Assembly (NCBI GenBank): GCA_964358765.1
Contig: CAYHPN010000001.1
Coordinates: 27,182-91,181, forward strand
DNA: 64,000 nt
DNA from: Candidatus Woesearchaeota archaeon
GTDB taxonomy: Archaea; Nanobdellota; Nanobdellia; Pacearchaeales; GW2011-AR1
Reading direction: 5' to 3'
This document shows, piece after piece, positions 1,473 through 19,101 of the stretch. A model generated the notes under the pieces. The model was not told the DNA's origin, ran no database searches, and saw nothing but the letters and a program-made list of their open reading frames with translations. Positions within the stretch are counted from its first letter, which is position 1, and each line of letters starts with the position of its first letter. The position numbers and the translations under genes are program-made.

Positions 1473-2774
1473 TTACATTTGAAATAGATGAGCATTATAA
1501 AGATCTGCAGAAATATTTTTCTTTGAAGAATTATTTACAGAATAATCTGGGGGAGATAGTGAAGAATTTGATAAATAATTAAATAATTCTTGAGCCGCAA
1601 TTTTATGCCCCAACTCATTTGGATGATAATCATAATCATTTACGGATAAGTCTTTATGGTCAAATTTTGCGAAAGAAGACTGGAGATCTATAAAATAAAA
1701 ATTATAGCCTATAGATATTCTTTTTGCAAAAGAATGTACAAAATAGAATTTATAATCTTTAAAATCAGATACTACTGGGAAAGCTACAAAGACTACTGTA
1801 ATATTTCTTTCCTTTGTAATATTTGATATCTGGCCATAAATTCCTAAAGTATAATTAGTATTTTTCTGAGAACTGTATGTTTTATTTAGTGTGTCCAGCC
1901 ATTTTCTTTTAAGTCCGAAATTTTCAAGAGCTTTATTAAGTCTAGATTCAAAAAAGTAATAGCTGTAAGATATGTCTCTTAACCAAAATCCAACAAAGGG
2001 AATCTCTAGATTGTCAACGCTTTCAAAATTTTTCAACTCTGGATCGTTATTTTCAATATCATTCTCATAATATTCTATTATTATAATGTTAGGATTATAA
2101 TCTAGAACTTTATTTTTTATAATATTTAGCTCGTCCAGAGCATCATAACCTGGAATGCCAAAATTATAGACTTCGTATTTATCAGAATAGTTCAAATTAT
2201 TTAAATATTTTTCCAATAATTTTGGATAAGTATCCCTAAAATCTTTTATTCCTGAACCAAATGAAAGAGAATCCCCGACTACTGCAATTCTTTTAACAGA
2301 GTCATTTTTCTCAATAGAGAAGTTATAATCTCTAAAACCAACATTATTCAATTTCACGTTTTCTTTTACAAACTTTATATAGGCTGGACCAGTTGATGAA
2401 AAAGAAGTCTCGTCATTTAAAATAAACCATGAAAAGAATTCAGTTATTGCAATAATAAATATAAAAACAGCACATAAAAGCAATAAATTTACTATTATTC
2501 TTTTCTTTTTTTCTAAGAATGATATTATATTATTATAAAATAATAAAGATATTAAGAATAAAACAATGGGAAAAAAACTAAAAATCAAAAATATTTTTTT
2601 AATTAAATTTATCTTTTCCAATGTTGATTCTTTCAAAGAATTGTCTATACTGTATTTCATAACGAATGATGGCCCAAAATACATTGAAAACGAGAAAGTT
2701 ATTAATGAGGATAATATTAGCAGAATTGCTAAAAAGGCATATAATTTTATTCCTATTTTCCTATTTTCATTCAT
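1473..2774 (-). CDS. Membrane-anchored SGNH/GDSL-family hydrolase or acyltransferase (three N-terminal TM helices)
   Basis: Three N-terminal hydrophobic helices are followed by RIAVVGDSLSFGSG (GDS block I) and DYDYHPNELGHK (DxxH block V). Confidence 0.65.
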   Translation of the reverse strand: MNENRKIGIKLYAFLAILLILSSLITFSFSMYFGPSFVMKYSIDNSLKESTLEKINLIKKIFLIFSFFPIVLFLISLLFYNNIISFLEKKKRIIVNLLLLCAVFIFIIAITEFFSWFILNDETSFSSTGPAYIKFVKENVKLNNVGFRDYNFSIEKNDSVKRIAVVGDSLSFGSGIKDFRDTYPKLLEKYLNNLNYSDKYEVYNFGIPGYDALDELNIIKNKVLDYNPNIIIIEYYENDIENNDPELKNFESVDNLEIPFVGFWLRDISYSYYFFESRLNKALENFGLKRKWLDTLNKTYSSQKNTNYTLGIYGQISNITKERNITVVFVAFPVVSDFKDYKFYFVHSFAKRISIGYNFYFIDLQSSFAKFDHKDLSVNDYDYHPNELGHKIAAQELFNYLSNSSLSPPDYSVNNSSKKNISADLYNAHLFQM

Positions 2775-2829: not shown

Positions 2830-3873
2830 TTAATTAATTTTACTAGTATGATTGTCTATTAATGTTACAATCTTTTTAGAAATTACTTGAGCAACTAGCT
2901 TGTTTCCTTCTTCATTTAAATGAAGATTATCTCCATAAAGATAATATTTTTCATAATCTTCTACATCCAAATAAGGCAATAGATCTATTAGTGTAATGTT
3001 TTCTTCATCTGCAATATCTTTTATTTTTTCTTGAGGATATTTTCCAAGATTATATCCATTAGCAAACTGCTGAGTATATGGAAAAACTATCAATACTAGC
3101 TTTTTGTTCTCTTCAGTTAAATTATTATTTAATTCTATTATTCTAGACTTAAATAAATTGTATGCTTTTTTTTCTGACCATTTAGAATATATTTCTCTGA
3201 AATATATCTGATTGTAATTGTTTATTAAACTGTAAAAAAACACACATGACTGGCAGATATTCTTTATTATTTTAGTGCTAACTTTATCTTGAGGCCTATC
3301 ATGATATCCAAATACTTTCATATTCATTTTGATCAAAGAAATATTAGGTTCATTTATATCATTTAAGACTATTCCTAAAGTTACAATATCTGCGTGATAT
3401 TTGTATCCTTCTTTTTTATAGAAATTATATTCTTGTGAAAGTTCATATCCGCTTACTCCTGCATTAATCGTCTCTGCAGATAATTTCTCCTCTTCCAAGT
3501 ACTTCTGGAGAATATAAAGATAAGTTTCATTATTATTGACTCCTGACCCAAAAGTTACAGAATCTCCAAGACCTAATATTCTTAATTCAACGTTCTTACT
3601 ATAATTTTTTTCTGAATCTCTTAAGCCGAAAGAATTTACAACTATATTTTTATCCTGATAAAGAGACATGGGAAAATTTCCATTGTAATTAGACTTTAAT
3701 TTGTATCCTAGAATTTCATCTATAATATGCAACTCCTTGGGATATCCTTTATCCTGCGGAGGATACCATGATGCTCGGACAATAATTTCCAATATCACAA
3801 AGCAGATTAATGTCGTAATAAGAAACAATATGATCTCTTTCTTTTTTGATCTAATTAAATTTAATAAAGCCAT
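2830..3873 (-). CDS. Membrane-anchored SGNH/GDSL-family hydrolase or acyltransferase (subfamily A paralogue 2)
   Basis: It has an N-terminal TM helix (IILFLITTLICFVILEIIV), LRILGLGDSVTFGSG (block I) and GDNLHLNEEGNK (block V). Confidence 0.65.
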   Translation of the reverse strand: MALLNLIRSKKKEIILFLITTLICFVILEIIVRASWYPPQDKGYPKELHIIDEILGYKLKSNYNGNFPMSLYQDKNIVVNSFGLRDSEKNYSKNVELRILGLGDSVTFGSGVNNNETYLYILQKYLEEEKLSAETINAGVSGYELSQEYNFYKKEGYKYHADIVTLGIVLNDINEPNISLIKMNMKVFGYHDRPQDKVSTKIIKNICQSCVFFYSLINNYNQIYFREIYSKWSEKKAYNLFKSRIIELNNNLTEENKKLVLIVFPYTQQFANGYNLGKYPQEKIKDIADEENITLIDLLPYLDVEDYEKYYLYGDNLHLNEEGNKLVAQVISKKIVTLIDNHTSKIN

Positions 3874-3977: not shown

Positions 3978-4625
3978 ATGAAATTATCTCCCTCGAATCA
4001 ACAATACAGATTGTTTATTAGTGAATTGAAAAATTTTGATCCTAAAAAAAAATATAATGTTCTTGAAGTTGGAGCAGGAGAGCAACTCATTAAACCATAC
4101 CTTGGGAAAAACTTTACATATAAAGGGATGGATTTAGGGAAAAATCAAGATTATAATTTCAATTTAGACGGCGGTAAATTCCCTATAAAATCTGAAGTAT
4201 TTGATATTATAATTTGCCTCGAAACAATGGAACATGTTATGTATCCAGAAAGAGTTTTAAAAGAGATTGTTAGAGTCGCAAAAAAAGATGCTTTTTTTTT
4301 CCTATCGATGCCTAATGAGTATAACTTTTTACAGAGATTTTATCATTTATTTGGGATAAAGACATTTATTGATGCACCTTTTAGGCTGGTGGAAGAGCAC
4401 CTACATATTCATAAACCTAGGGTTAAGGATATTCTGAATTTATTTTCTAAACATCTTAAAATTCAAAAGATAGATTATGTTTGGGAATCTAGGCATAGTA
4501 CTGAATATTTAACATATTCATCTTTTTTTAGAGCAATTGACAAATTTATCGATGTTTTAGCCAAATTATGGCCTGAAATGTTTACACGACTTGTTGCTGT
4601 AAAAGCTGTAAAAAGAGATCGTTAA
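3978..4625 (+). CDS. Class I SAM-dependent methyltransferase
   Basis: Motif I is VLEVGAGEQ. An acidic loop (GMDLG) and the post-I/II region FDIIICLETMEHV match the Methyltransf_11/23 pattern. Confidence 0.6.
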   Translation: MKLSPSNQQYRLFISELKNFDPKKKYNVLEVGAGEQLIKPYLGKNFTYKGMDLGKNQDYNFNLDGGKFPIKSEVFDIIICLETMEHVMYPERVLKEIVRVAKKDAFFFLSMPNEYNFLQRFYHLFGIKTFIDAPFRLVEEHLHIHKPRVKDILNLFSKHLKIQKIDYVWESRHSTEYLTYSSFFRAIDKFIDVLAKLWPEMFTRLVAVKAVKRDR

Positions 4626-4641
4626 AAAAAATATTCTCCTT

Positions 4642-6090
4642 CTAAAATTGAGCATAAATAAATTGTATCTTCTTAAACATACCAAAAAGCAATATGCCCA
4701 TTAATAAAAGCCAGTAAAAGACAAATGCTCCCTTGTCTGAACTAATGAAACTTTTATCTTTTGATTCACAATATTCTTGATATATCTCAATTAATATGAA
4801 TATAATTAAAGAAATAACAATTATAATAATCTCATTCCAATCTACTCCTAAATTTATCTTGAAGAAAGCATAACTGAAATCGGTAAATAATTTATTAAAG
4901 ATATTAAAAGAATCTGATATCGAATTTGCTCTGAAAAATATCCAGCCTATATTAATCAAGATAAATGTAGCAATTATCTGCATGTATTTGTTCATTTTAT
5001 CCCAGTAATTACGGATTAAATAGTAAGCAGATATGGCAATTCCATAAAATAATCCAAAGAATACAAATGTCCAATTAGCTCCATGCCATAGCCCAAGCAA
5101 AACTTCACCCATCATTATAGAAATTATAAATGAGATTATGTGCTTTTTATTGGAATTTAATTTTGAAAATCTTTTTAATTTTGAAACTCTTAAATAAAGA
5201 GGCACAAATATATAATCTTGGAACCAACTTGACAAAGAAATGTGCCATCTTCTCCAGAACTCAGATACGGATCTGGATAGAAAAGGCCTCTTAAAATTTT
5301 CTTTTAGGTTATATCCCAACATTTTTGCACTTCCTATTGCAATATCGCTATATCCAGAAAAATCAGCGTATAGTTGAAATCCAAAGAATAAAGTTGCGAT
5401 AATTAAAGTAAGTCCTGAATAAGCGGAAGGATTTGTATATATTAAACTTACAACAATTGATGATCTATCTGCAATTACCACTTTCTTAAACAATCCCATA
5501 ATTATTCTTTTAATACCTTGGATAAGATTATCTAATTCGAATCTGTTTTTTTCATGAAATTGAGGCAATAGACTTTGGGCTCTTTCTATCGGTCCGGAAA
5601 TAAATTTAGGAAAAAACAAAACATAAGCTCCAAAAATAAAGAAGTTCTTCTCAGGATTTACCTTTTTCCTATAGATGTCTATTATATAACCAATATTCTG
5701 AAACGTGTAAAAAGATAGACCTATAGGCAATGCAAAATTAATTAATAAAATATCAGGTTTAAAAGAAAACAAGGTGAGGAAATGCCTAGTAGAATCACTT
5801 AAAAAATTAAAATATTTAAAAGAAATTAAAATTAGTAAATTAAATGAAATAGCTAATATTGCCAATAATTTATTTATTCTAGAAGATCTATTTTTATTAA
5901 TATATAAAGCAACAAAATAATTCAATATTATGGAGAAAAATAATATTATTGAATACTCTGGTTTAAAACTCCAGTAAAAATATAAACTTGCTAATAATAT
6001 AATGATTAACTTGTATCTCTGACTAACCGCATAATATAATAAAAGAACAAGAGGCAGAAAAATCAGAAAATGTATAGAATTAAATAGCAT
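4642..6090 (-). CDS. MBOAT-family membrane-bound O-acyltransferase (DltB/AlgI-like), copy 1
   Basis: It is polytopic, with 10 or more hydrophobic helices. The MBOAT core FWRRWHISLSSWFQDYIFVPL carries the conserved His, and a second motif GLWHGANW is present. At 482 aa the length is typical. Confidence 0.85.
   Translation of the reverse strand: MLFNSIHFLIFLPLVLLLYYAVSQRYKLIIILLASLYFYWSFKPEYSIILFFSIILNYFVALYINKNRSSRINKLLAILAISFNLLILISFKYFNFLSDSTRHFLTLFSFKPDILLINFALPIGLSFYTFQNIGYIIDIYRKKVNPEKNFFIFGAYVLFFPKFISGPIERAQSLLPQFHEKNRFELDNLIQGIKRIIMGLFKKVVIADRSSIVVSLIYTNPSAYSGLTLIIATLFFGFQLYADFSGYSDIAIGSAKMLGYNLKENFKRPFLSRSVSEFWRRWHISLSSWFQDYIFVPLYLRVSKLKRFSKLNSNKKHIISFIISIMMGEVLLGLWHGANWTFVFFGLFYGIAISAYYLIRNYWDKMNKYMQIIATFILINIGWIFFRANSISDSFNIFNKLFTDFSYAFFKINLGVDWNEIIIIVISLIIFILIEIYQEYCESKDKSFISSDKGAFVFYWLLLMGILLFGMFKKIQFIYAQF
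4912..5268. repeat. 357-bp segment identical by eye to 7465-7821, inside MBOAT copy 1
   Basis: A line-by-line comparison of the two stretches found no mismatch. The flanks drop to clearly diverged sequence on both sides. Confidence 0.85.
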
Positions 6091-6173
6091 TTTATTTAGC
6101 GATAGTTTTTAGATCAAGTGAAAATGATGAAGAGATTTATAAATATACCCTTTCTAAGGCTGCTTCTAAGATA

Positions 6174-7193
6174 TTATTTATCCTGATTAAAAACGAATTT
6201 AAGTTCAGAAATACTCTTGTTTTTACCTTCAAGATCCTCTCTAATTTTATTAGTTATTATTTTTGAACCTTCTACATTTAAATGGCCTGGATCCCCAAAA
6301 ATAGAGTTATCTGTGAATACTTCCTGATAATCTAAAATTTGGAATCTAATATTGCTTTTATTACACAAAGTTATTATGTTATTGTAATAATCCGTTAAAT
6401 TAAATCCGCTTTCTTGGATTCTTTTTATATATCCTGGGGAAAGAGGATATTTAATGAAAATTATTTTTATATTGTTCTTCTGAGCTAGTTTTAGTGTCTT
6501 TAATAAATAATCTGAACCTAGTGGATTTAAAGAAGAGTTTGTATTTTTAAAAGTTACTTTATAATACTGATCAATATAACCTTCTTGATCGGCATTTCTA
6601 CTAAAATTTTCATTGTTAGGAGACCATCCATGAAAAGTATTGGAAATCTTTCCTCCATTAAAAAATATAGAGAGATCTTTTGCCCCGTTCATAAAATATA
6701 GATTTGACTGAAGCAAATAATCTGTATAAGAAAGAGAAGTTATATTTTTTATATCAGTGTAGGATAAGAAGTCAGACCAATACCATAAATTCTCTATATA
6801 AAATGGTTCTGGATAAGCACGATCATTTAAAATATGAGGATCTATTTCAATTATCAAAGTATTTACTTTAATATGATCAACCTCCACTATCTTTCTTAAA
6901 GTATAGTAGGCTAAGATAAAAGTTCCCTCTCCTCCTGTGGCCAAGTTAAAAGAACCATTTAAATACATTGGGTTTGCTCCATCTTTTGTATGTGAACTAC
7001 CAAAGAATAAATAAGGGATGTTTTTTTCTTTACTATTTACAAAACTATCAAATTCTATCTCATTACGATAGAGTTGTTTTTTCTGAATAAAAATATGAAA
7101 ATAAATTATATTAAATAATATCATAAATACGATTAGAGTTGCGATAAAAATTGCTGATTCCTTAATAAAATTAATGTTTTCTCTCTTTAACAT
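6174..7193 (-). CDS. Membrane-anchored DltD-like/SGNH-like partner protein (subfamily B paralogue 1)
   Basis: It has a single N-terminal TM helix (IFIATLIVFMILFNIIYFHIFI), FFGSSHTKDGANP near the N-terminus and GDPGHLNVEGS (DxxH) near the C-terminus. Its start codon lies immediately after the stop of MBOAT copy 2. It is paralogous to 12165-13202. Confidence 0.55.
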   Translation of the reverse strand: MLKRENINFIKESAIFIATLIVFMILFNIIYFHIFIQKKQLYRNEIEFDSFVNSKEKNIPYLFFGSSHTKDGANPMYLNGSFNLATGGEGTFILAYYTLRKIVEVDHIKVNTLIIEIDPHILNDRAYPEPFYIENLWYWSDFLSYTDIKNITSLSYTDYLLQSNLYFMNGAKDLSIFFNGGKISNTFHGWSPNNENFSRNADQEGYIDQYYKVTFKNTNSSLNPLGSDYLLKTLKLAQKNNIKIIFIKYPLSPGYIKRIQESGFNLTDYYNNIITLCNKSNIRFQILDYQEVFTDNSIFGDPGHLNVEGSKIITNKIREDLEGKNKSISELKFVFNQDK

Positions 7194-7194
7194 T

Positions 7195-8649
7195 TTAAAA
7201 TTGAAAGTAAATAAATTGACTATATGTATAAACCCCCATTAAGATAATGAAAATTACTAGAATAATATAAATTAGCGCTTTTAATATTTTTGGTGTTTTA
7301 TTTTTAATCTTCTGCATTACATTTGCTTCTTCCAAAAGATCATAAGATATTATAATCAACATCCCAATTATAGCAATTATTAAATCTGGCAAACCTAATC
7401 CTACTGATCTTTTAGTAATTGTAAAGGAAACTGAGTAGAATATGCTCCTTAAAATATATGAGGCATCTGATATCGAATTTGCTCTGAAAAATATCCAGCC
7501 TATATTAATCAAGATAAATGTAGCAATTATCTGCATGTATTTGTTCATTTTATCCCAGTAATTACGGATTAAATAGTAAGCAGATATGGCAATTCCATAA
7601 AATAATCCAAAGAATACAAATGTCCAATTAGCTCCATGCCATAGCCCAAGCAAAACTTCACCCATCATTATAGAAATTATAAATGAGATTATGTGCTTTT
7701 TATTGGAATTTAATTTTGAAAATCTTTTTAATTTTGAAACTCTTAAATAAAGAGGCACAAATATATAATCTTGGAACCAACTTGACAAAGAAATGTGCCA
7801 TCTTCTCCAGAACTCAGATACAGATTTGGACAGATAAGGCCTCTTAAAGTTTTCTGTTAAATTGTATCCTAATATTCTAGCACTGCCTATTGCTATATCA
7901 GTATATGCAGAAAAGTCTGTATATAATTGAAATCCAAAGAATAAAGTTGCGATAATAAGATAAGGTGCGTTGTAGTTTGAGGGATGACTATAAATAGTGT
8001 CTACTAAAATTCCCAAACGATCGGCCACCACTAACTTCTTAAACATACCCCAAATTATCCTTTTAGATCCGTAAATTAAATTTTCAGGATTGAATGCATG
8101 ATTGCTTTTTATTTGAGAAATAAATTTAGATGGCCTTTCTATTGGACCAGCTACTAATTTAGGGAAGAAAAGAGTATTTGCAGCAAAAATTCCTAGATGT
8201 TTTTCAGACTCTTTATTCTTTTGATAGATGTCAATTAAATAACTAATATTCTGAAATGTGTAAAAAGATATACCTATCGGCAGAAGAATCGAAATGTAAG
8301 AAATTGAAAAATTAATGTTGAAGATACCAAATAAATCCCTTAAGCTACTGCTTAGAAAATTTAAATATTTAAAGGTAATTAAATATAACAAGTTAAAAAC
8401 AATGCCTATAATCATTAGAATTTTTGCTTTTCTTTTGTTTATGTTAATTGAACGGTAGATATAAATTCCAATTAAATAATTAAAAATTATTGAAAGGATT
8501 ATTAGAATAATCCATTCTGGTTTGGAACTTATTATAAAATAAAAAGTTCCTAGAAGTAAAGCAATCCATTTAAATTTTGAAGGTGTTAAAAAATATAAAA
8601 CTATAAAGATTAGTAAAAAAACAATAAAACTAAATGATGCAAATAACAT
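7195..8649 (-). CDS. MBOAT-family membrane-bound O-acyltransferase (DltB/AlgI-like), copy 2
   Basis: It shares the architecture of copy 1. The N-terminal two thirds are diverged, while about 119 aa around the catalytic His region are identical to copy 1. Confidence 0.85.
   Translation of the reverse strand: MLFASFSFIVFLLIFIVLYFLTPSKFKWIALLLGTFYFIISSKPEWIILIILSIIFNYLIGIYIYRSININKRKAKILMIIGIVFNLLYLITFKYLNFLSSSLRDLFGIFNINFSISYISILLPIGISFYTFQNISYLIDIYQKNKESEKHLGIFAANTLFFPKLVAGPIERPSKFISQIKSNHAFNPENLIYGSKRIIWGMFKKLVVADRLGILVDTIYSHPSNYNAPYLIIATLFFGFQLYTDFSAYTDIAIGSARILGYNLTENFKRPYLSKSVSEFWRRWHISLSSWFQDYIFVPLYLRVSKLKRFSKLNSNKKHIISFIISIMMGEVLLGLWHGANWTFVFFGLFYGIAISAYYLIRNYWDKMNKYMQIIATFILINIGWIFFRANSISDASYILRSIFYSVSFTITKRSVGLGLPDLIIAIIGMLIIISYDLLEEANVMQKIKNKTPKILKALIYIILVIFIILMGVYTYSQFIYFQF
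7465..7821. repeat. 357-bp segment identical by eye to 4912-5268, inside MBOAT copy 2
   Basis: See the 4912-5268 entry. A further short identical block (ttgaaatccaaagaataaagttgcgataat) follows after a diverged gap. Confidence 0.85.
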
Positions 8650-8650
8650 T

Positions 8651-8896
8651 TTAATTTGATTTTATTTTGTTCTCAATTAGTGAGAATAGGTCTTTAACTC
8701 TTTGTGTATTTTCTATTTCGACAGCAGTAAATTCTATTCTGAATTCATCCTGAAATTTTGAGATAAGCATTAGATTATTAAATGAATCCCATTCAGGAAT
8801 AGAATTGAATTTCTTTTCAGGATCTAAACTAGTAATATCTATACCCATTATAGAATTTACTATTTCTTTTACTTTTGAGAGCTCATTTTTATCCAT
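8651..8896 (-). CDS. Acyl/peptidyl carrier protein (DltC/ACP-like)
   Basis: It is 81 aa and acidic. A candidate phosphopantetheine-attachment Ser sits in PEWDSFNNLMLI (DS motif at the start of helix 2). It overlaps the FkbH-like gene by 8 nt and abuts MBOAT copy 2. Confidence 0.65.
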   Translation of the reverse strand: MDKNELSKVKEIVNSIMGIDITSLDPEKKFNSIPEWDSFNNLMLISKFQDEFRIEFTAVEIENTQRVKDLFSLIENKIKSN

Positions 8897-10637
8897 TTTT
8901 AACAGTTATCCAGTCAATATTTGTTAGAAATAAGTCTTTTAATAGTTTGCTATACTTCTTTGTCTTTCCATCTTCCTCTATAAGGTTAAAACCAAGAAGA
9001 TCGTAAAAATCTTTAACCTGCTCATTTTTATCTGATTGTATGTATTCCGCATGGACTAATTTGTCATTTCTTAAACTTTTAATTGACTCCAAAAAGAACT
9101 GATTCTCAATTTTTCTAGATAATATTCTGCAGCTTAGAAGAAAAGTATCTAGGAAATAGTCTTTACCTTCATCTTTTATGATTATCACTCCAGTTAGACC
9201 TAGTTCCCCAAATTTATCTTTTACACTTAAAGAATAAACTGAATATTCTCTACTTTCCATCATACTTTTTACTTGTTCAAGAGTGTACCTTTTTGTTCTA
9301 AGATTGAATTGATTTGTTTTATTTATTAATTGAACTATTCTTTCAATATTTTCAAAATCATCTATTTTTACAGTTATTGAGGTCTCCAGCTTCTTAAGGT
9401 ATTCTTCAATAGAATAACTTTCCTTTAATTCATTTCTTTTTAATTCCAGGCTATACATTTCATGTCTTTTTTTGTCCTCTTCTGTTAAAGACAGAGATTT
9501 AAAGTAAGGCATTTCTTTTAATATTGCAGGAAGCAAAGCTACATCCTTTGGAAAATCAATAACTTCAATCATTGGAAGAGCTGTTTTAACTTCTAAACGT
9601 TCTGCAGGATTGTCATCAAGAAAAACAAAACTGTCTAAACCTAAATTAAGCTCTTTTGCAATTGACTGAATATTCAAAGATTTTGGCTGCCAATTTATCT
9701 TTTTTATTATAAAATCTTCGCTTTTAAGAATCATGTTTCTATTATTAGAAAAAACCTCAGAGACATCAGTTTCATTATTTTTTGATGAAATAGCTATTAC
9801 GACCCCCATTTTCTTATAATTTAGTATTACTTTCTGCACCTCTTTATATATCTCTCCAACTGGCCCTTCTCCTATTCCAATACCCAGCGCACCTTCTTCT
9901 CCCACTACTCCACGCCATAAGGTATTATCTAAATCGACCACCAAGACTTTTTTATTTTTACCATAAGCTGCTTTAATAAATAATGTAAATTCTTCAGAAA
10001 TTTTTTCTGCTCCAAGAGAAGAAAGCAATATTTTTCCTAGAAAAAACATTTTCTCATCGAAGATATTTTTTTTTCCATAAAAAGAACAAATTTTCTCAAA
10101 ATCAAGTAATTCTAGAGACTTACTTTCTTTTTTTATCTCTATAAGGCCATTATTAAATAATTCTATTGCAGAATGAATGCCCTCATCTCTACTAATATCC
10201 ATTAAACCATAAGGAGAGTACATAAAATGGTCTAAATTTGTAAGAATAATTTTAGATTTTAACCTAGTACTCAAGATTGCTGTTTTAATAAAACTAACTT
10301 TCTCATTTATAAGCTCATTAATTTCTTTTTTATTCTTATCTAGAATTGTAAATTCTAAGTCCTCTAAATAACTCCTCGAGTTTAGTGCAATCAAAATCAC
10401 GTCTGGCTTAAACTCATAAAGAAATGAAGATTCGTCCATCAATTCCTGAATAAACTGATTGTAGCCTCCAAACTTAATTATTGGTTTATACCCGCTAATT
10501 AAAAGATTATATTTTAATGGGTAAAGAATATTTTTTAAAGTGTATGTGCTCAACACGGCTATTTTTAATTCTTTAAAGTCCTTATCTTTTTTATCACTTT
10601 CAAATTCCTTTACTAATTTCTCATATTCTTTAATCAT
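8889..10637 (-). CDS. FkbH-like HAD-IIIC phosphatase/loader with a C-terminal acyltransferase-like half
   Basis: The HAD motif I is VLVVDLDNTLWRGVVGEEG (DxDxT), characteristic of the FkbH/HAD-IIIC subfamily. IAISSKNN and FLDDNP match HAD motifs II/III. The C-terminal roughly 180 aa (ELGLTGVIII...FLLSCRILSRKIE) looks GNAT-like. Confidence 0.7.
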   Translation of the reverse strand: MIKEYEKLVKEFESDKKDKDFKELKIAVLSTYTLKNILYPLKYNLLISGYKPIIKFGGYNQFIQELMDESSFLYEFKPDVILIALNSRSYLEDLEFTILDKNKKEINELINEKVSFIKTAILSTRLKSKIILTNLDHFMYSPYGLMDISRDEGIHSAIELFNNGLIEIKKESKSLELLDFEKICSFYGKKNIFDEKMFFLGKILLSSLGAEKISEEFTLFIKAAYGKNKKVLVVDLDNTLWRGVVGEEGALGIGIGEGPVGEIYKEVQKVILNYKKMGVVIAISSKNNETDVSEVFSNNRNMILKSEDFIIKKINWQPKSLNIQSIAKELNLGLDSFVFLDDNPAERLEVKTALPMIEVIDFPKDVALLPAILKEMPYFKSLSLTEEDKKRHEMYSLELKRNELKESYSIEEYLKKLETSITVKIDDFENIERIVQLINKTNQFNLRTKRYTLEQVKSMMESREYSVYSLSVKDKFGELGLTGVIIIKDEGKDYFLDTFLLSCRILSRKIENQFFLESIKSLRNDKLVHAEYIQSDKNEQVKDFYDLLGFNLIEEDGKTKKYSKLLKDLFLTNIDWITVKNG

Positions 10638-10977
10638 TCTTAGTCCTCAGTGCTACAGCAAAAGCATATTCCCCACTGTGAGAAATGCTTACTGAAAAAT
10701 TACTTTTTTGGGAAAAATCTTTTTTTATTATTTTTACAATAGGTTTTCCAGAATCTTCCCTATTTATTTCAATTTCATTTAATAGTATATCTTGTTTAGA
10801 GAGAGTTTTAATAATTGCTTCTTTTGCACAGAATAAACCGCATAATGTTATGTGCGGAGAATCTTTTGAAAAAGCATGGACAATCTCATTTGGAGTAAAG
10901 TTATTCTTTACAAAAGAACTATTTTTATCCAATTTGAATCTTTCTATATTTTCTAAATCTGTTCCTATTTCTATCAT
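10630..10977 (-). CDS. acpS: Holo-ACP synthase (4'-phosphopantetheinyl transferase, AcpS type)
   Basis: It is 115 aa. IGTDLENIERF matches the G(I/T)D(I/L)xxIxRF motif, and FCAKEAIIKT and SISHSGEYAFAVA match the AcpS core motifs. Confidence 0.7.
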   Translation of the reverse strand: MIEIGTDLENIERFKLDKNSSFVKNNFTPNEIVHAFSKDSPHITLCGLFCAKEAIIKTLSKQDILLNEIEINREDSGKPIVKIIKKDFSQKSNFSVSISHSGEYAFAVALRTKND

Positions 10978-11678
10978 TTTATTATAAAATTTTTTCCCCT
11001 TATTGAACCATTGTTCACTATTTCCATAATTTTGGCAGCCACCCTATCTGGAGAGAGAAAATTACGGGTTTTTAACTGTATCTCTTTGATTGCAGAAGGC
11101 ACGGAAACAGTTTTATTATTTAAATTCATTTTCCATAGAAAATCAGTGTTCATTTTGCTTGGTGAGACTGAATTAACCCGAATCTTGAGATGTTCAAGAT
11201 CTTTAGTCAAAGATTTCATTAACCCAAATAATGCAAATTTTGAAGTTATGTAAGGAGAAAAATTCTTTTGAGGCTTTGCTATCATTTCACTAAGTATGAA
11301 GATAATATTTGAATCCTCCTTCATTTTTGGAATTATTTTCTTTAAAAAGTAAATATAGTTGAAGAAATTTATTGCAAACTCTTTTTTGAAAGTGTCTAGA
11401 TCTATCTTTTCAAATTTTTCAAATGTTAGAGTATTTGCGATAGTGCTTGTAAAAAAATCTATGTTATCAATTTCTGCAACTTCTTTAAAAAATGAGTCAA
11501 TTGAATCTATGCTACCCATGTCCAAATTATGAAGTTTTACCTTATCTTGAGCAAAATTATTTTCCCCAAGATTGTTCTTAAAAGACGAGCCTATAATGTA
11601 AAATCCCTCTTTTACTAATGCCTCTACTATTGCTTTCCCCAATGTTCCTGTCGCACCTAAAACTACTGCCTTTTTCAT
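10974..11678 (-). CDS. Short-chain dehydrogenase/reductase (FabG-like ketoreductase)
   Basis: The cofactor motif is VVLGATGTLGKAI (TGxxxGxG) and the catalytic motif is YITSKFAL (YxxxK). It overlaps both neighbouring genes by 4 nt. Confidence 0.7.
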   Translation of the reverse strand: MKKAVVLGATGTLGKAIVEALVKEGFYIIGSSFKNNLGENNFAQDKVKLHNLDMGSIDSIDSFFKEVAEIDNIDFFTSTIANTLTFEKFEKIDLDTFKKEFAINFFNYIYFLKKIIPKMKEDSNIIFILSEMIAKPQKNFSPYITSKFALFGLMKSLTKDLEHLKIRVNSVSPSKMNTDFLWKMNLNNKTVSVPSAIKEIQLKTRNFLSPDRVAAKIMEIVNNGSIRGKNFIIK

Positions 11679-12091
11679 CTTAAAACCTTTACATGTATCG
11701 TCCCTTCTTGTAGGATGGTATTTTTAACATTTGTTATTCTCGTTTCTAGTACAATAATTTTTAAAGGATCGACTTTTTTTATTATTTTTCCCTCTATTTT
11801 AACAGTATCTCCTATAAAGAAAGGTTTTTTCATGTTAATATCTACTTTTAATATTAATGAGTATTTTCCAGGAAGAAAAACCCCGCATAAAGTTGATAAA
11901 AAAGAAGTTAAAAGCAAACCATGACCTACTCTTTTACCAAAGATAGTATTTTCTGAATAATTTTCATCCATATGAAGAGGATTAATATCTCCAGTTAATT
12001 TTGAAAAAGAGTCTAGATCTTTCTTTTCTATTTTTCTAGAAAAAAAATGACTCATCCCTATATTAAGATCATCGTAAGTATACTCGTTCAT
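11675..12091 (-). CDS. MaoC-like hot-dog-fold dehydratase/hydratase
   Basis: GDINPLHMDENYSENTIFGKRVGHGLL matches the MaoC dehydratase signature (D-x-N-P-x-H...G-x-x-x-x-H-G). It is 138 aa. Confidence 0.7.
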   Translation of the reverse strand: MNEYTYDDLNIGMSHFFSRKIEKKDLDSFSKLTGDINPLHMDENYSENTIFGKRVGHGLLLTSFLSTLCGVFLPGKYSLILKVDINMKKPFFIGDTVKIEGKIIKKVDPLKIIVLETRITNVKNTILQEGTIHVKVLR

Positions 12092-12164
12092 TTTTTAAAT
12101 AACGTATATTCTTTTATAAATTTTATGGAATTATTAATTTTGAAGGGGAAAATCTACCAAGTAA

Positions 12165-13202
12165 CTAGTCTTTGAACTCTTTCTTACAAGGACTTTTAAA
12201 CGAACTCATATTAGCCATATCTTCTTTAATTTTCTGTGAAAACTCTGTTGCACCTTGATAATTTAAATGAGTATCATCGCCAAAATATTCTGATTTATTG
12301 AAGTAAATATCGTAATAATTAATATAGTAATAATTACAGCCAATGCTTTTTTCTATTTCTTTAAATAGATAACTATAATAATTATCTAGAGATATATTCT
12401 TATCCTTTATCATTAAGCTGTATTCTTTAGAATGAGGATAAGTTAACAAAATAACTGTGATATTATTAACTTTGGCATATTTTATCATCTTAAAAAAATA
12501 TTCTAGAGAAATATTACTACGCATATTTTGGCCCTTATAAAACAAATTAAAACTTCTATCTACAAAATATGATTTATTTTTTTCTGAAAAAGATTCGTTA
12601 TTTATGATCCAGCCTGATTTTATATTAGTCCATTCTGGAGATTTTATAAAGATCCCGAATTCTTCACCTCTCCCAATCACAGGCAAATAAGACTCGATAA
12701 ATATTTTAACGAAAGAGTCTTTTTGGAGTATCTCTTTTATTTCCTTCTGTGAAACAAACCTTGAATATAATGGAAGTTCATTGAATAAAAAATCATCTTT
12801 AGTATAATAAGTTGAAAAAGTGTGAGGATCAAGCTGCAATATAATTTTATCAATAGATAGGTTATCTTTTTCAATGATCTTCCTTAATTTATAATAAGAT
12901 TTTATATAGTTTTCACTTCCACTGCCGTAATTATAAGATTTATTAAAGAAAACGGGGTTAATATCATGAAAAGGATGCGAATCTCCAAAGAAGATAATAT
13001 TTAATTTTTTATCTGGGATGTTATTTACGAATGTATAATAGTCTAACTCTTTTCTATAAAAAGTTTTCTTAGTTAGAACAGAAGTAACATAAATATTATT
13101 AAGAAGCAATATTATAAAAATTGCAGAGATTATAAAAATTATGAAAAACTTAATAATTTTTTTATCTAGATTATTTTTTTTCATATTAAATTTAAAAAGC
13201 AT
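12165..13202 (-). CDS. Membrane-anchored DltD-like/SGNH-like partner protein (subfamily B paralogue 2)
   Basis: It has an N-terminal TM helix (IIKFFIIFIISAIFIILLL), FFGDSHPFHDINP (GDSH) and a C-terminal GDDTHLNYQGA (DxxH). It is collinear with 6174-7193. Confidence 0.55.
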   Translation of the reverse strand: MLFKFNMKKNNLDKKIIKFFIIFIISAIFIILLLNNIYVTSVLTKKTFYRKELDYYTFVNNIPDKKLNIIFFGDSHPFHDINPVFFNKSYNYGSGSENYIKSYYKLRKIIEKDNLSIDKIILQLDPHTFSTYYTKDDFLFNELPLYSRFVSQKEIKEILQKDSFVKIFIESYLPVIGRGEEFGIFIKSPEWTNIKSGWIINNESFSEKNKSYFVDRSFNLFYKGQNMRSNISLEYFFKMIKYAKVNNITVILLTYPHSKEYSLMIKDKNISLDNYYSYLFKEIEKSIGCNYYYINYYDIYFNKSEYFGDDTHLNYQGATEFSQKIKEDMANMSSFKSPCKKEFKD

Positions 13203-13334: not shown

Positions 13335-14420
13335 ATGAAAATAGCCATAGTTGAACCTTATATTGGGGGATTGGGAGGAGCACAGAAAGTTATATCTGAG
13401 TACACCTCATTTCTTAAAACAAAGGGGCATGAGGTTGAGATATTCACTTGCAGAAAGGAAAAATCTCCATATAGCAAGTTTAATAAAATAAAAATAAATG
13501 TGTTTGGATACCGATCAAAATATCTTTCCGCAGTAAATTTTTTATTTAAAAAGATAAAAGGTTTTGATATAATAATTGCAAATGATTTTCCTTCTTATTT
13601 AATAAGCATCTTCAATAAAAATGTTGTCTGGGTATGCTACTCTCCAAAAAGGGATTTTTATGATTTAAAAGATTTTGCATTTAAAAATGCAAATTTTAAA
13701 GGTAAACTAATTCACCTAATAAAAAGGTTGTTTTTAAAAAAGATAGATCTAATTTCGGCAAGAAGAATGAAAGTCATATTTGCGATAAGTAAAAATGTTG
13801 AAAGTAGAATATTAAAATATTACAATACCCAATCCAGAATATTCTATCCAGGAATATATAATTCTGTATATTTTAACAAAGATTATAACAATAATTTTCT
13901 TTCGGTTGCTAGATTTGTTCCGCCTAAAAGGGTAGAAAACATAGTTAGAGCTATGGAGCATGTCAAAGATAAAAGAGCAAAGTTATTGGTAATAGGCGAA
14001 GGAGGAGATAAAGAAAAAATAGTTAATTTGTGCAAAAATAAGGATAATATTAAATTTATAGGAAAAGTGAGCGAGAAAAAATTAAAAGACTTGTATGCTC
14101 GGTGCAGAGCTGTTATTTACGTACCAGTAGATGAAGATTGGGGGCTTGTTCCACTAGAAGCAGCAGCATCAGGAAAAACCACAATAGGAGTGAATGAGGG
14201 AGGCTTAAAAGAATACATTATCAATAATAAAAATGGTTTTCTGCTGGAAAACCCTAGTCCAGTTAATATTGCCAAGAAGATTGATTTATTGATGGGAGAT
14301 AAACAACTTGCTAAAAAAATGGGCGGGGAAGCTAAAAAAGGTGCTGAAAAATTTAATTGGATAAATCTATTACCAAAATTTGAAAAAGAGATAAGCCAGA
14401 TAAAGAGAGATCTAGTTTAA
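13335..14420 (+). CDS. GT-B glycosyltransferase, family 4-like
   Basis: The EX7E region reads EDWGLVPLEAAASGKTTIGVNEGGLKEYI. The N-terminus (KIAIVEPYIGGLGGAQKV) is typical of GT4. Confidence 0.75.
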   Translation: MKIAIVEPYIGGLGGAQKVISEYTSFLKTKGHEVEIFTCRKEKSPYSKFNKIKINVFGYRSKYLSAVNFLFKKIKGFDIIIANDFPSYLISIFNKNVVWVCYSPKRDFYDLKDFAFKNANFKGKLIHLIKRLFLKKIDLISARRMKVIFAISKNVESRILKYYNTQSRIFYPGIYNSVYFNKDYNNNFLSVARFVPPKRVENIVRAMEHVKDKRAKLLVIGEGGDKEKIVNLCKNKDNIKFIGKVSEKKLKDLYARCRAVIYVPVDEDWGLVPLEAAASGKTTIGVNEGGLKEYIINNKNGFLLENPSPVNIAKKIDLLMGDKQLAKKMGGEAKKGAEKFNWINLLPKFEKEISQIKRDLV

Positions 14421-14429
14421 TACATTCTT

Positions 14430-15542
14430 TTAAATCAATTCATTTATTGCTTTTTTTACTTCTTCTAGCGTTATATTCAGTATACAGCTTTGGTCTTCAT
14501 CTCCACAGGGATCGCCTTTAGAATTTTTTGGGTGAAATAAAACACGGAAGTTTTTCTTTTCCTGCCAAGGACCCCATTCAGTCGGGGTGCTCCTGCTCAT
14601 TAAATCGATAGTTTTAATATTTAGTGCTGAAGCGATATGAATAATACTCGTGTCAGGCGCAAGTAATAATTTTGCTTTGGATAAAAGACAAATTAATTCT
14701 TTTAAATCTAGTTCTCCAGCTAAAACTATAGTATTTCTTTTATTTTTTACAAGATATTTGATATTGTTTGCTAATTGGGCTTCATCCTTGATTCCCGTTA
14801 TAATAACTTTAAGATTTTCCTTTTCTATTAAATAGTCTGCAATTTTAGCAAATCTTTCCTCCGGCCATTTTCTGGAGAGATGCTTCCCTTCGCCGTATTT
14901 GCCAAAACCTGGATGAATTATTACAAAATCTTTTATTCCGTTTTTCTTTAACACTAAGTTGACTCTTTTCATTTTAATTTTATCTATAAATACCTCCATC
15001 TTTGGATCTTTATTATTAAGGCCTATTAAATTGAGAAACATTGCATTTGATTCTACAGCATGCTTATTTTTGAATTTAAGAGGAAATATTCTTCTAGTGA
15101 AGAAAAAAGCTGGACCTTCTTTTATCATTTTGAAGCAGCCCACCCTATAAGGAATGCCGGCCTTTAGACATAAAGTTGAAATTTTCAGAGATCCAGGCCA
15201 GAGAATAATTGCAAGATCATATTTATTTTTTATATTTTCTAGATTTTTTTTAAAATTTTCTTCGTAATTGATTATTTTTCTTATATTTGGATTATCTCTT
15301 AAAATTATTGAAGGCCCTTGCATTGCAAGAAAATCAACATTGCAGTTGATATTTTCTTTTAAAGTCTTTAAAACTGGAGTGCATGCTAGTAATTCCCCTA
15401 TAGCCCCCAAATGAATGACTAAGGCATTTTTTATTTTATCTTTCTTAATTAATTTAAATTTAGATAGATCAAAAACCATCCAAAATACATAATCTAAAAA
15501 TAATAATATATCTTTGACTTTTTTTTTAATATGATCTCTCAT
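14430..15542 (-). CDS. Glycosyltransferase family 9 (heptosyltransferase-like)
   Basis: LLLAPDTSIIHIASALNIKTIDL matches the GT9 xDSGxxHxAxAL motif region. IIHPGFG...RKWPEERFAKIADYL matches the central K(R/K)WP motif. Confidence 0.7.
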   Translation of the reverse strand: MRDHIKKKVKDILLFLDYVFWMVFDLSKFKLIKKDKIKNALVIHLGAIGELLACTPVLKTLKENINCNVDFLAMQGPSIILRDNPNIRKIINYEENFKKNLENIKNKYDLAIILWPGSLKISTLCLKAGIPYRVGCFKMIKEGPAFFFTRRIFPLKFKNKHAVESNAMFLNLIGLNNKDPKMEVFIDKIKMKRVNLVLKKNGIKDFVIIHPGFGKYGEGKHLSRKWPEERFAKIADYLIEKENLKVIITGIKDEAQLANNIKYLVKNKRNTIVLAGELDLKELICLLSKAKLLLAPDTSIIHIASALNIKTIDLMSRSTPTEWGPWQEKKNFRVLFHPKNSKGDPCGDEDQSCILNITLEEVKKAINELI

Positions 15543-15545
15543 TTT

Positions 15546-16283
15546 TTAATTTTTTTCGTTTTTAGCTATTACCATATACTCCCAAGGACTTATTTTTCCT
15601 ATTAATTTCTCTATAGAATATCTAAACCTTGGGAAGAAGAGAAAGAGTGCACTGAGATATTTATTTAAGTACGCTCCTTTAATTATCTTTATATCATAAA
15701 AATCATTATCTGCTAATATCCTATAGAGAGCTTCTGGAGGAAAAGGTCTCTTGTGGGTATAATCTTTATAAAAGTCTTTAAATTTAAAATTTGGCACTGC
15801 AATCAAAATAATGCCTCTGTTTACTAAAACTCTTTTTATATTTTTAATAGCTTCTTCTGGCTCGCCTAAATGCTCCAAAATATGAAACATGGTTACTCCA
15901 TCAAAAAATGAATCTTTATAAGGTAAATCCTTTGTGACATCGCAAAACTTTACTTTATAGCCTTGTTTTTTTAAATCAATCACTTCTTTTTCTACTACGT
16001 CAATTCCATACATATCGATGCTTGGAGGCGCTGTTTTCATAAACTGGCCTCTCCCAAACCCTATATCTAGAACTCTTCGGCAATTATTTAAAAATCTCCA
16101 TTTATCCTTTAACATTAATGAATAATGATAATCTGAATTCTTTTTTATAAAAAAGCCATTTTTACTAAAATTATTTCTTAATTTATATAATCCCTTCTTG
16201 GAATTAAACTCTACATTGCTGTCAAAATATTTATTTGAATAGTTTTTCATTGTGAAGCCTTTGGAGGGTTTCTCTCTGCTCAA
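15546..16283 (-). CDS. Class I SAM-dependent methyltransferase
   Basis: VLDIGFGRGQF is motif I. FDGVTMFHILEHL and GIILIAVPN follow the Methyltransf_11 pattern. The true start may be the internal ATG at 16250 (MKNYSNKYF). Confidence 0.65.
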   Translation of the reverse strand: MSREKPSKGFTMKNYSNKYFDSNVEFNSKKGLYKLRNNFSKNGFFIKKNSDYHYSLMLKDKWRFLNNCRRVLDIGFGRGQFMKTAPPSIDMYGIDVVEKEVIDLKKQGYKVKFCDVTKDLPYKDSFFDGVTMFHILEHLGEPEEAIKNIKRVLVNRGIILIAVPNFKFKDFYKDYTHKRPFPPEALYRILADNDFYDIKIIKGAYLNKYLSALFLFFPRFRYSIEKLIGKISPWEYMVIAKNEKN

Positions 16284-16294
16284 TTAAAATGTTT

Positions 16295-19100: not shown

Positions 19101-19101
19101 C

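Follow-up and report, generated by a model that had tools for sequence, protein, structure and literature searches.

In the Dlt system, the invariant tyrosine of an FXYXXF hexapeptide on the microprotein DltX takes D-alanine from the carrier protein DltC by way of the membrane-bound O-acyltransferase (MBOAT) DltB and hands it to DltD (PMC12148441). In PatA and AlgI-type MBOATs this hexapeptide is fused to the enzyme via two extra helices and is auto-acetylated from acetyl-coenzyme A (acetyl-CoA), and Dlt is treated as the sole carrier-protein-fed pathway in which an MBOAT works with an SGNH protein, the others being said to use acyl-CoA (PMC12148441). A further way of charging a carrier is known from characterised FkbH proteins, which form glyceryl-S-acyl carrier protein (glyceryl-S-ACP) from 1,3-bisphosphoglycerate (PMC7489565). 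Here we describe a nine-gene cassette in a 64,000-nucleotide stretch of contig CAYHPN010000001.1 (the window) from a Candidatus Woesearchaeota archaeon, in which an FkbH-like loader and an ACP are encoded together with two MBOATs and two SGNH proteins. We consider it rather probable that the cassette is a self-contained, carrier-protein-fed MBOAT-SGNH relay that puts a glycerate-derived three-carbon (C3) acyl group on a surface polymer.

The sequence-only reading of this DNA had taken the cassette to be uncharacterised, and no description of it was found in the searched literature. There, no paper deals with both FkbH and DltB; FkbH, MBOAT and ACP appear together only in an unrelated aeruginosin review; and the combination of MBOAT, SGNH and carrier protein leads to Dlt and PatAB studies, general reviews and one unrelated preprint, with no non-Dlt carrier-fed MBOAT/SGNH system described. 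An FkbH-domain gene in the flagellar glycosylation locus of Campylobacter jejuni has been noted without a function (PMC7099621).

Results

Gene content of the cassette

The cassette consists of nine co-directional minus-strand open reading frames (ORFs) spanning 4642-13202 (Table 1), all of them exactly where the sequence-only reading had drawn an operon. The tight packing claimed for it holds at six junctions (-8, -8, -4, -4, +1 and +1 nt, that is, 4-8-nt overlaps and 1-nt gaps) but not at two wider gaps of 73 and 83 nt. Profile searches against Pfam and NCBIfam back eight of the nine gene labels. Neither an adenylase (AMP-binding) nor a ketosynthase or acyltransferase was detected by profile in the nine genes or their flanks, and a motif scan of every long ORF of the window found no adenylation, ketosynthase or acyltransferase motif, in agreement with the earlier claim that a DltA-type adenylase and a ketosynthase are missing. 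No GNAT, NAT or FabH-like transferase is encoded within or beside the cassette, and the MBOAT/SGNH machinery is the window's only acyl outlet for the ACP module.

MBOATs with a fused shuttle motif and their SGNH partners

Both MBOATs carry WRRWH and end exactly in the FXYXXF acyl-shuttle hexapeptide, as FIYAQF in MBOAT1 and FIYFQF in MBOAT2; His285, F479, Y481 and F484 of MBOAT2 were invariant in 30 homologues. The best NCBIfam match of both copies was DltB (TIGR04091; 171 bits for MBOAT1 and 159 for MBOAT2, under the 375-bit cutoff), which was also the sole match in a sequence search of the PDB. An AlphaFold2 model of MBOAT2, with a predicted local distance difference test score (pLDDT) of 87.6 and a predicted template-modelling score of 0.86, shows two extra C-terminal helices (residues 420-441 and 454-471) and a core whose best PDB match is DltB (8jem, 6bug; E 1e-12, template-modelling (TM) score 0.70-0.72 on DltB length), with DltB, HHAT and PORCN as the top fold matches. 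Since the motif is fused to the MBOATs, the lack of a separate motif-bearing DltX-like micro-ORF in window positions 1-21000 is readily explained. The window thus brings together MBOATs built on the PatA/AlgI plan and a carrier protein of the Dlt type; the sequence-only reading had put forward a Dlt-like logic for the carrier, MBOAT and SGNH triad, but the MBOATs have the PatA/AlgI-type architecture with a fused FXYXXF and not that of DltB with DltX.

The two MBOAT genes have in common a 357-nt tract of 100% identity (Table 1), which covers the catalytic core of both proteins, 120 codons that include WRRWH and the catalytic His. Outside it, the two MBOATs share 53% identity in the N-terminal part and 24% in the C-terminal part. 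Two independent ENA assemblies stop 20 and 53 nt into the tract, as a true repeat would give, and the identity is likely to come from recent gene conversion between old paralogues. Elsewhere in the window, an 82-residue predicted membrane protein encoded beside a carbamoyltransferase gene has no family match and ends in ...KYYFKQF, a near miss of FXYXXF with Phe at the Tyr position.

The SGNH protein encoded between the two MBOAT genes scored above the gathering score of PF07611 (DUF1574) and matched DltD weakly (TIGR04092, 18.9 bits against a 150-bit cutoff); its candidate catalytic motifs are GSSH at residue 65 and DPGH at residue 301. Its AlphaFold2 model is of moderate quality (pLDDT 68.8) with an N-terminal helix at residues 4-39, and Foldseek placed DltD on top (6pfx, 3bma, 6o93 and 7dxm; E 2.5e-5, TM ~0.38), followed by GDSL esterases and PatB. 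The first cassette gene, also said to encode a DltD-like protein, has no Pfam or NCBIfam match of its own, and the label stands only through its paralogy with the other SGNH protein (BLASTP 31% identity, E 8e-48). It carries candidate catalytic motifs GDSH (residue 73) and DDTH (residue 309) and one hydrophobic segment, residues 12-45, as an N-terminal anchor. When four DUF1574-type paralogues were aligned, G-x-S-H and D-x-x-H (Ser, Asp and His) were invariant; both SGNH proteins of the cassette have a single N-terminal membrane segment.

Charging and tailoring of the carrier protein

The 582-residue protein passed the curated cutoffs for FkbH (TIGR01686; 313.1 bits against 146.65, residues 229-552, profile positions 3-321 of 323) and HAD-IIIC (TIGR01681; 77.5 bits against 35.75) and also matched FkbH_N, which confirms its predicted identity as an FkbH-like HAD-IIIC protein. 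A DLDNT motif begins at residue 235, and D235-x-D237-x-T239, S285, K319, D341-D342 and S502-C503-R504 were invariant among 17 diverse homologues down to 34% identity; C503 is the putative counterpart of the OzmB catalytic Cys. The structure 3slr of Bacteroides BF1531 aligns to residues 20-388. The C-terminal half, proposed to be GNAT-like, had no Pfam match even at E 10 when searched alone; the putative label has TIGR01686 coverage and precomputed GNAT matches of two homologues as its only basis.

The ACP gene overlaps the FkbH-like gene by 8 nt, lies 1 nt from the MBOAT2 gene and is two genes away from the AcpS gene. Its product matched NF002148 over its full length (E 2.8e-8), with NCBIfam ACP profiles under their cutoffs and Pfam PP-binding at 18.3 bits, slightly under the gathering score of 20.8. 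The modifiable Ser expected of a carrier is present within WDS (the phosphopantetheine Ser), which is at least 95% conserved across 65 FkbH-adjacent ACPs. One such ACP, in the Promethearchaeota locus L013, has WDA in place of WDS despite an AcpS encoded upstream. A phosphopantothenate-cysteine ligase (CoaB) is also encoded in the window, so that CoA, the phosphopantetheine donor of AcpS, is plausibly on hand.

Of the two putative tailoring enzymes, MaoC has a complete hydratase-2 motif, FSKLTGDINPLHMDENYS, at residue 29, while the short-chain dehydrogenase/reductase (SDR), whose gene has 4-nt overlaps with its neighbours, carries GATGTLG (GxxGxxG) at residue 8 and YITSK (YxxxK) at residue 143. 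Many loci have MaoC and SDR genes alongside FkbH-ACP. An N-terminal MaoC and a C-terminal SDR/ketoreductase were found fused in six of seven large proteins tested with Pfam, the fusions being encoded next to FkbH-ACP in several bacterial phyla, including the MBOAT-bearing loci L036 and L053 (Table 1), and such fusions argue for consecutive action upon one substrate. A lactyl route via DH-KR-FkbH-ACP loading modules is established for FR901464 (Fr9A) and was proposed for bryostatin (BryA). In the searched literature, the support for such a route is the BiGMeC domain table, where an FkbH loading module is listed as yielding D-lactate-ACP (PMC7901079). In methoxymalonyl pathways, by contrast, glyceryl-ACP is oxidised and not dehydrated (PMC7489565). 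By analogy with the lactyl modules, dehydration of glyceryl-ACP followed by reduction to lactyl-ACP would be the simplest route for MaoC and the SDR. With no ketosynthase, the acyl group would stay three-carbon.

Recurrence of the gene set

Three other DPANN genomes carry this set of genes, with the order permuted and other genes around it, as MaoC-SDR-AcpS-FkbH-ACP-MBOAT-DUF1574-DUF1574 (L004), MaoC-AcpS-FkbH-ACP-methyltransferase-MBOAT-DUF1574 type (L089) and MBOAT-MaoC-SDR-AcpS-FkbH-ACP-DUF1574 type (L090). A Micrarchaeota contig (L043) has MBOAT-AcpS-FkbH-ACP-MaoC, and a relative, L005, only SDR-FkbH. The partner proteins of L089 and L090 matched a profile of the DUF1574 paralogues at E 6e-54 and 2e-71, respectively, and six of the top MBOAT matches came from contigs whose lengths also occur among the top FkbH matches. 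Recurrence in L004, L089 and L090 indicates that the arrangement in the window is not due to chance. Further, in L090 as in the window, an MBOAT and an SGNH partner flank the ACP-loading genes on opposite sides, which argues that they form one unit and is hard to square with two unrelated systems. The neighbourhood conservation expected of a functional cassette was therefore found in three further DPANN genomes, and its core extends across bacterial phyla, as described below. Because in relatives a single MBOAT is joined by one or two SGNH proteins, the two parallel MBOAT/DltD-like exits suggested earlier apply to the window but are specific to its lineage.

The FkbH-like family of about 600 residues is very large, with over 7,400 clusters found at an E value of at most 1e-10. 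We surveyed 82 loci, 80 of them from species-representative genomes of many bacterial and archaeal phyla, to which L004 and L005 were added; MaoC and SDR were counted with phmmer and Pfam, as an iterated MaoC profile also caught overlapping SDR ORFs and was hence unreliable. An ACP was detected in 70 of the 82 loci, in 64 of them at most 700 nt from FkbH. An MBOAT lay within 10 kb in 12 loci (11 of 80 when L004 and L005 are excluded), namely those of a cyanobacterium, Acidobacteriota, two Burkholderiales, Planctomycetota, a Magnetobacteriaceae bacterium, Omnitrophota, Myxococcota, Rhodospirillales, Hydrogenedentes, Micrarchaeota and L004. The probability of at least 12 MBOAT-bearing loci among 82 is 4e-11 at a background rate of 1% and 8e-4 at 5%. 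The ACP and MBOAT genes are often in direct contact, with a 4-nt overlap in L078 and gaps of 0 nt in L085, 3 nt in L079, 11 nt in L004 and 1 nt in the window.

Half of the 12 survey MBOATs (L004, L036, L053, L066, L078 and L079), and likewise those of L089 and L090, are long and FXYXXF-ended. Five of the other six are without the motif, and each has alongside it, on the same strand, a micro-ORF of 39-54 residues that encodes a hydrophobic helix and ends in xxYxxF (...FIYFAF, ...FFYGAF, ...IVYKAF, ...IVYQNF and ...IAYQQF). When all the fetched loci, 1.42 Mb in total, were scanned as a control, only eight such ORFs came up, these five included, and the chance expectation in the relevant 18 kb is ~0.04. 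Judged by their sequence, the five are DltX-like microproteins, in bacterial loci outside Firmicutes; their position right after FkbH-ACP-MBOAT lends independent support to carrier-fed relays.

In loci without an MBOAT, genes of cytoplasmic N-acyltransferase type and other outlets or genes that prepare the acceptor take its place, among them an aminoglycoside-N-acetyltransferase-like protein and de-N-acetylases, and in the Clostridium locus L009 an FkbH-like gene and a GNAT gene stand beside CMP-sugar and Maf-like genes. FkbH-ACP therefore acts like a module that donates acyl groups to one outlet or another. MaoC without an SDR was found in L009, L022, L023, L034 and L089. A dedicated AcpS accompanies FkbH in 7 of 11 archaeal or candidate phyla radiation (CPR) loci versus 3 of 71 other bacterial loci (Fisher p = 9e-6), an enrichment that fits hosts without a housekeeping AcpS because fatty-acid synthase is lacking. 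The presence of an ACP in an archaeon, to which the sequence-only reading had drawn attention, is thus a real oddity, yet it is neither rare nor unique to the window genome, FkbH-ACP being found in DPANN, Asgard and thaumarchaeal loci and usually together with AcpS.

Host and neighbouring genes

The host is a DPANN-type archaeon. The window encodes archaeal-type SecD/SecF, an ATP-dependent DNA ligase and an Agl23-like protein; GC content is ~28% throughout, and 27-28% across cassette and flanks alike. Identical cassette proteins are encoded on a 155,522-bp NCBI contig and on three independent Hainich groundwater ENA contigs, and the nearest FkbH and MBOAT homologues are labelled Nanoarchaeota, Woesearchaeota or 'archaeon D22'. 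Archaeal-type genes also stand beside the cassette, SecD/F in the window and L090, and EF1-beta and Peptidase_A24 in L004.

The cassette lies within a glycan-decoration island made up of glycosyltransferase (GT) genes of families GT4, GT9 and GT2, three methyltransferase genes, a carbamoyltransferase gene and four GDSL/SGNH-like genes (Table 1). The genes of 13335-19100 probably make the acceptor. L089 and L090 are likewise flanked by sugar-nucleotide genes, GT genes and a flippase gene. Four extra GDSL/SGNH-like genes around the cassette is an unusually high number and points to additional steps of acyl transfer or ester cleavage (esterase) on that glycan. A candidate second FkbH and ACP set at 14430-19350 (ORFs of 586 and 82 residues) was rejected, these ORFs actually encoding the carbamoyltransferase and an unannotated small membrane protein.

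Further from the cassette, an ORF of 1495 codons has no NCBIfam match and coincides with the window's strongest positive GC skew and highest GC (about 0.33-0.38). The ATP-dependent DNA ligase is only 359 residues long and aligns to TIGR00574 positions 166-526; it appears to be without the N-terminal DNA-binding domain. Another product matched the Hailong anti-phage nucleotidyltransferase HalB weakly (E 1.4e-9, far under the cutoff).

Table 1. Positions of the cassette genes, neighbouring features of the window and selected features of other loci (prefixed by locus).
Feature	Position	Strand	Remarks
DUF1574-type DltD-like SGNH protein, 345 aa, first cassette gene	12165-13202	-	by paralogy only
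MaoC-type hot-dog (R)-hydratase/dehydratase, 138 aa	11675-12091	-	PF01575, 47.9 bits
SDR, candidate ketoreductase, 234 aa	10974-11678	-	adh_short, 96.9 bits
AcpS-type 4'-phosphopantetheinyl transferase, 115 aa	10630-10977	-	PF01648, 55.2 bits; TIGR00556, 67.4 bits, above cutoff
FkbH-like loader, 582 aa	8889-10637	-	FkbH_N, HAD-IIIC phosphatase and C-terminal transfer domain
Stand-alone ACP, 81 aa	8651-8896	-	NF002148; Ser38 in EWDSF
MBOAT copy 2, 484 aa	7195-8649	-	PF03062, 63 bits
FIYFQF codons (FXYXXF, Tyr481), MBOAT2 C-terminus	7198-7215	-	
DUF1574-type DltD-like SGNH protein, 339 aa, membrane-anchored	6174-7193	-	PF07611, 44.6 bits
MBOAT copy 1, 482 aa	4642-6090	-	PF03062, 73.3 bits; FIYAQF codons 4645-4662
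Tract identical between the MBOAT genes	4912-5268 = 7465-7821	-	
GT4	13335-14420	+	adjacent glycan-decoration gene
GT9	14430-15542	-	adjacent glycan-decoration gene
Methyltransferase	15546-16283	-	adjacent glycan-decoration gene
GDSL/SGNH	16295-17362	-	adjacent glycan-decoration gene
Carbamoyltransferase	17340-19100	-	adjacent glycan-decoration gene
Predicted membrane protein, 82 aa	19102-19350	-	
GDSL/SGNH-like (weak)	443-1453	+	other flank of cassette
GDSL/SGNH-like	1473-2774	-	other flank of cassette
GDSL/SGNH-like	2830-3873	-	weak ALGX and AT3-SGNH matches
Methyltransferase	3978-4625	+	other flank of cassette
CoaB	44785-45540	-	
ATP-dependent DNA ligase	49266-50345	+	
ORF, 1495 aa	52369-56856	+	
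HalB-like (weak)	57893-58672	+	
FkbH-adjacent ACP with WDA	L013:11243-11485		
DltX-like micro-ORF	L057:14339-14476		
DltX-like micro-ORF	L074:13993-14136		
DltX-like micro-ORF	L083:9166-9327		
DltX-like micro-ORF	L085:13119-13265		
DltX-like micro-ORF	L069:11714-11830		
MaoC-SDR fusion	L058:10250-11485		
MaoC-SDR fusion	L048:8554-9852		
MaoC-SDR fusion	L036:7012-8550		
MaoC-SDR fusion	L031:7568-8938		
MaoC-SDR fusion	L027:1625-2926		
MaoC-SDR fusion	L053:4263-5687		

Discussion

Domain identities, catalytic motifs, folds, synteny, conservation and co-occurrence were observed directly in the window and the compared loci, and for relatives of the encoded proteins the formation of glyceryl-ACP by FkbH, the His-to-Tyr-to-Ser relay of MBOAT and SGNH proteins and the use of a carrier by DltB are established. 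By analogy with these, we propose that AcpS, using CoA, would convert the 81-residue apo-ACP into holo-ACP at Ser38. The FkbH-like enzyme would take the glycolytic acyl phosphate 1,3-bisphosphoglycerate, the presumed substrate, its HAD domain stripping the 3-phosphate; the glyceryl group would be held on Cys503 and then loaded as glyceryl-S-ACP without ATP-consuming adenylation. MaoC may dehydrate this to enol-pyruvoyl- or pyruvoyl-S-ACP, whose 2-keto group the SDR may reduce to give lactyl-S-ACP as the putative product, lactyl being the hydroxy analogue of alanyl. The acyl-ACP would dock at the cytoplasmic face of the MBOAT, where His285 would catalyse transfer to the outer-face Tyr481 of the enzyme's own FXYXXF; from this shuttle the acyl group would pass to the catalytic Ser of the membrane-anchored DUF1574/DltD-like SGNH protein, which would form an ester with a hydroxyl on the likely acceptor, an extracellular glycan that the glycosyltransferases encoded nearby would produce.

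Several observations weigh against this proposal. FkbH-ACP evidently has no need of an MBOAT, as 70 of the 82 surveyed loci are without one. MBOATs 42-47% identical to those of the window, from C. botulinum (L086), Caminicella (L087) and a JGI contig (L088), share the FIYFQF end and have a partner gene, with no ACP or FkbH within 7 kb; they presumably use acetyl-CoA, so that at this depth ACP linkage is no property of the window's MBOAT clade and FXYXXF is generic. For the bacterial proteins encoded after the MBOATs, no common family with the DUF1574 proteins emerged: they failed to align among themselves, their comparison with the DUF1574 alignment by hhalign gave E 3.7e-4 (probability 36%), 0.011 and no match, and a word-indexed search with a DUF1574 protein returned 5 matches only. 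The moderate SGNH model, with its low TM score to DltD, adds to this. Gene context and synteny make up the whole case for acyl-ACP as the putative MBOAT donor, and the lactyl assignment is an analogy with polyketide synthase (PKS) loading modules. Finally, L089 has MaoC without an SDR plus a methyltransferase, and the final acyl group therefore appears to differ among genomes.

Keeping this in mind, the hydroxy/enoyl-acyl group guessed at in the sequence-only reading can be narrowed to a glycerate-derived C3 unit, most likely lactyl; if the relay operates, the chances that lactyl itself is transferred are about evenly balanced. Where MaoC has no SDR beside it, or where a methyltransferase has joined the set (L089), other C3 variants are probably transferred. 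For the window, we regard it as somewhat doubtful that the relay is right but carries a group other than lactyl, such as unmodified glyceryl, pyruvoyl/enol-pyruvoyl or hydroxypyruvoyl, with the SDR serving as an oxidase or MaoC as a hydratase or editing thioesterase. FkbH product chemistry is known only as far as glyceryl-ACP, the known methoxymalonyl pathways oxidise instead of dehydrating, and MaoC occurs without an SDR in the five loci listed above, all of which would suit such a group. However, the MaoC-SDR fusions and the intact hydratase-2 motif suit a pair of enzymes that dehydrate and then reduce. The methoxymalonyl route employs dehydrogenases of other families, the window cassette contains no O-methyltransferase, and lactate-ACP is the listed product of an FkbH loading module (PMC7901079).

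A rival reading is that the locus holds two separate systems, in which acetyl-CoA-dependent AlgI/PatA-type MBOAT/SGNH pairs act independently of an acyl-ACP that is used on a sugar precursor, for N- or O-acylation, by a cytoplasmic acyltransferase encoded elsewhere. This is what the closely related MBOATs with the same C-terminal motif and no ACP or FkbH nearby would suggest, and fused-motif MBOATs are stated to use acyl-CoA (PMC12148441); the likely outlet in most FkbH-ACP loci is a cytoplasmic NAT/GNAT-type enzyme, and the whole neighbourhood is a glycan-decoration island, in which modifying genes of unrelated kinds gather. We nevertheless find it unlikely. The cassette and its surroundings are devoid of a GNAT, NAT or FabH-like transferase, ACP and MBOAT genes abut or are translationally coupled in five phyla, and the gene set stays together despite permuted order, with the MBOAT and its SGNH partner on either side of the ACP genes. 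Further, short DltB-like MBOATs with DltX-like micro-ORFs, a known carrier-using architecture, directly follow FkbH-ACP, and the enrichment of MBOATs beside FkbH is significant at plausible background rates.

The relay could also act upon something other than a glycan, such as a membrane glycolipid, the head group of a lipid or a surface (S-layer) protein. Teichoic acid and peptidoglycan are both missing from DPANN archaea, and the Dlt precedent acylates a lipid-anchored polymer. The setting of the cassette among GT4, GT9, GT2, sugar methyltransferase and carbamoyltransferase genes, and the similar sugar-nucleotide, GT and flippase flanks of L089 and L090, make a non-glycan acceptor quite improbable. 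That mis-binning or mis-assembly placed bacterial DNA in an archaeal contig, as typically bacterial gene families, metagenome assembly and an MBOAT repeat that breaks other assemblies might have suggested, is effectively ruled out by four independent DPANN assemblies that place the cassette beside archaeal-type genes, by the uniform GC of 27-28% and by the exact proteins on the 155,522-bp contig and three independent ENA contigs.

Tentatively, the cassette may stand for an undescribed, phylum-spanning class, present in DPANN and several bacterial phyla, in which a C3 lactyl, glyceryl or pyruvoyl group would be put on an ACP by an ATP-independent FkbH and exported through MBOAT and SGNH proteins. 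If so, carrier-fed systems would include a second class, widespread and charged by another loader, widening the donor range of bacterial and archaeal MBOATs, and fused-motif (PatA/AlgI-type) MBOATs would be able to accept carrier-protein donors. Microbial surface glycans would carry a new kind of ester, lactyl or glyceryl, with 'O-lactylation' as the hydroxy analogue of D-alanylation, and the FkbH-like family of about 600 residues from glycan loci (cj1302, BF1531) would gain a role as a modular acyl-donor unit. It would also account for the persistence of ACP and AcpS in archaea and CPR bacteria without fatty-acid synthesis, the archaea among them retaining the pair solely for surface decoration. 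Direct loading from 1,3-bisphosphoglycerate would couple this decoration to glycolytic flux in organisms of minimal metabolism.

Comparison with described systems

Compared with Dlt (DltA/B/C/D/X, D-alanylation in Firmicutes), the cassette likewise places a small carrier gene beside genes for an MBOAT and a membrane-anchored SGNH protein. Its MBOAT core matches DltB best in sequence and fold and its SGNH fold matches DltD best; the invariant His and the FXYXXF Tyr shuttle are shared, and the likely lactyl group would be isosteric with alanyl. It differs in that DltA is missing, the FkbH loader using a glycolytic acyl phosphate instead of ATP and a free acid; the carrier is AcpP-like and not DltC; the shuttle belongs to the MBOAT itself, at the end of two additional helices, instead of being borne by a DltX microprotein; MaoC and SDR tailoring of the carrier-bound group and an AcpS of its own are added; the host is an archaeon without teichoic acid; and scores fall far under the DltB and DltD equivalog cutoffs. 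The cassette would work like Dlt, yet it is not a member of it, and its SGNH protein is a relative but not a member of DltD.

With PatA/PatB (peptidoglycan), AlgI/AlgJ/AlgX (alginate) and WssH/WssI (cellulose), the cassette shares MBOATs of ~480 residues with two extra helices and an FXYXXF end, 42-47% identical to clostridial members, and an SGNH partner with a Ser/Asp/His triad; the two SGNH paralogues per MBOAT of L004 recall AlgJ and AlgX. Those systems use acetyl-CoA without a carrier (PMC12148441), whereas here ACP, loader, phosphopantetheinyl transferase and tailoring genes are interleaved. The cassette fits the structural definition of a PatA/AlgI-type MBOAT-SGNH relay and departs from it by its carrier, loader, phosphopantetheinyl transferase and tailoring enzymes.

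On the loading side, the FkbH/OzmB polyketide loaders are matched by an FkbH domain above the curated cutoff, the HAD motifs, the conserved Cys and an ACP immediately downstream. Unlike their pathways, the cassette has no PKS, FabH-like tetronate synthase, FkbI/K-type dehydrogenases or FkbG O-methyltransferase, its loader begins with an additional FkbH_N domain, which Bacteroides BF1531 (3slr) also has, and its outlet is a membrane acyltransferase relay and not an assembly line. The DH-KR-FkbH-ACP modules of BryA and Fr9A unite the same four activities, FkbH, dehydratase, ketoreductase and ACP; in the cassette a discrete MaoC hot-dog protein and a stand-alone SDR take the place of PKS DH and KR domains, and the product is proposed to go onto a surface polymer instead of being extended. 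The nearest parallels in setting are cj1302 of the Campylobacter jejuni flagellar glycosylation locus and BF1531 of Bacteroides fragilis, members of the same FkbH-like family in surface-glycan loci and likewise of uncharacterised function; their loci are without an MBOAT/SGNH outlet, which the archaeal cassette adds to the FkbH-like loader.

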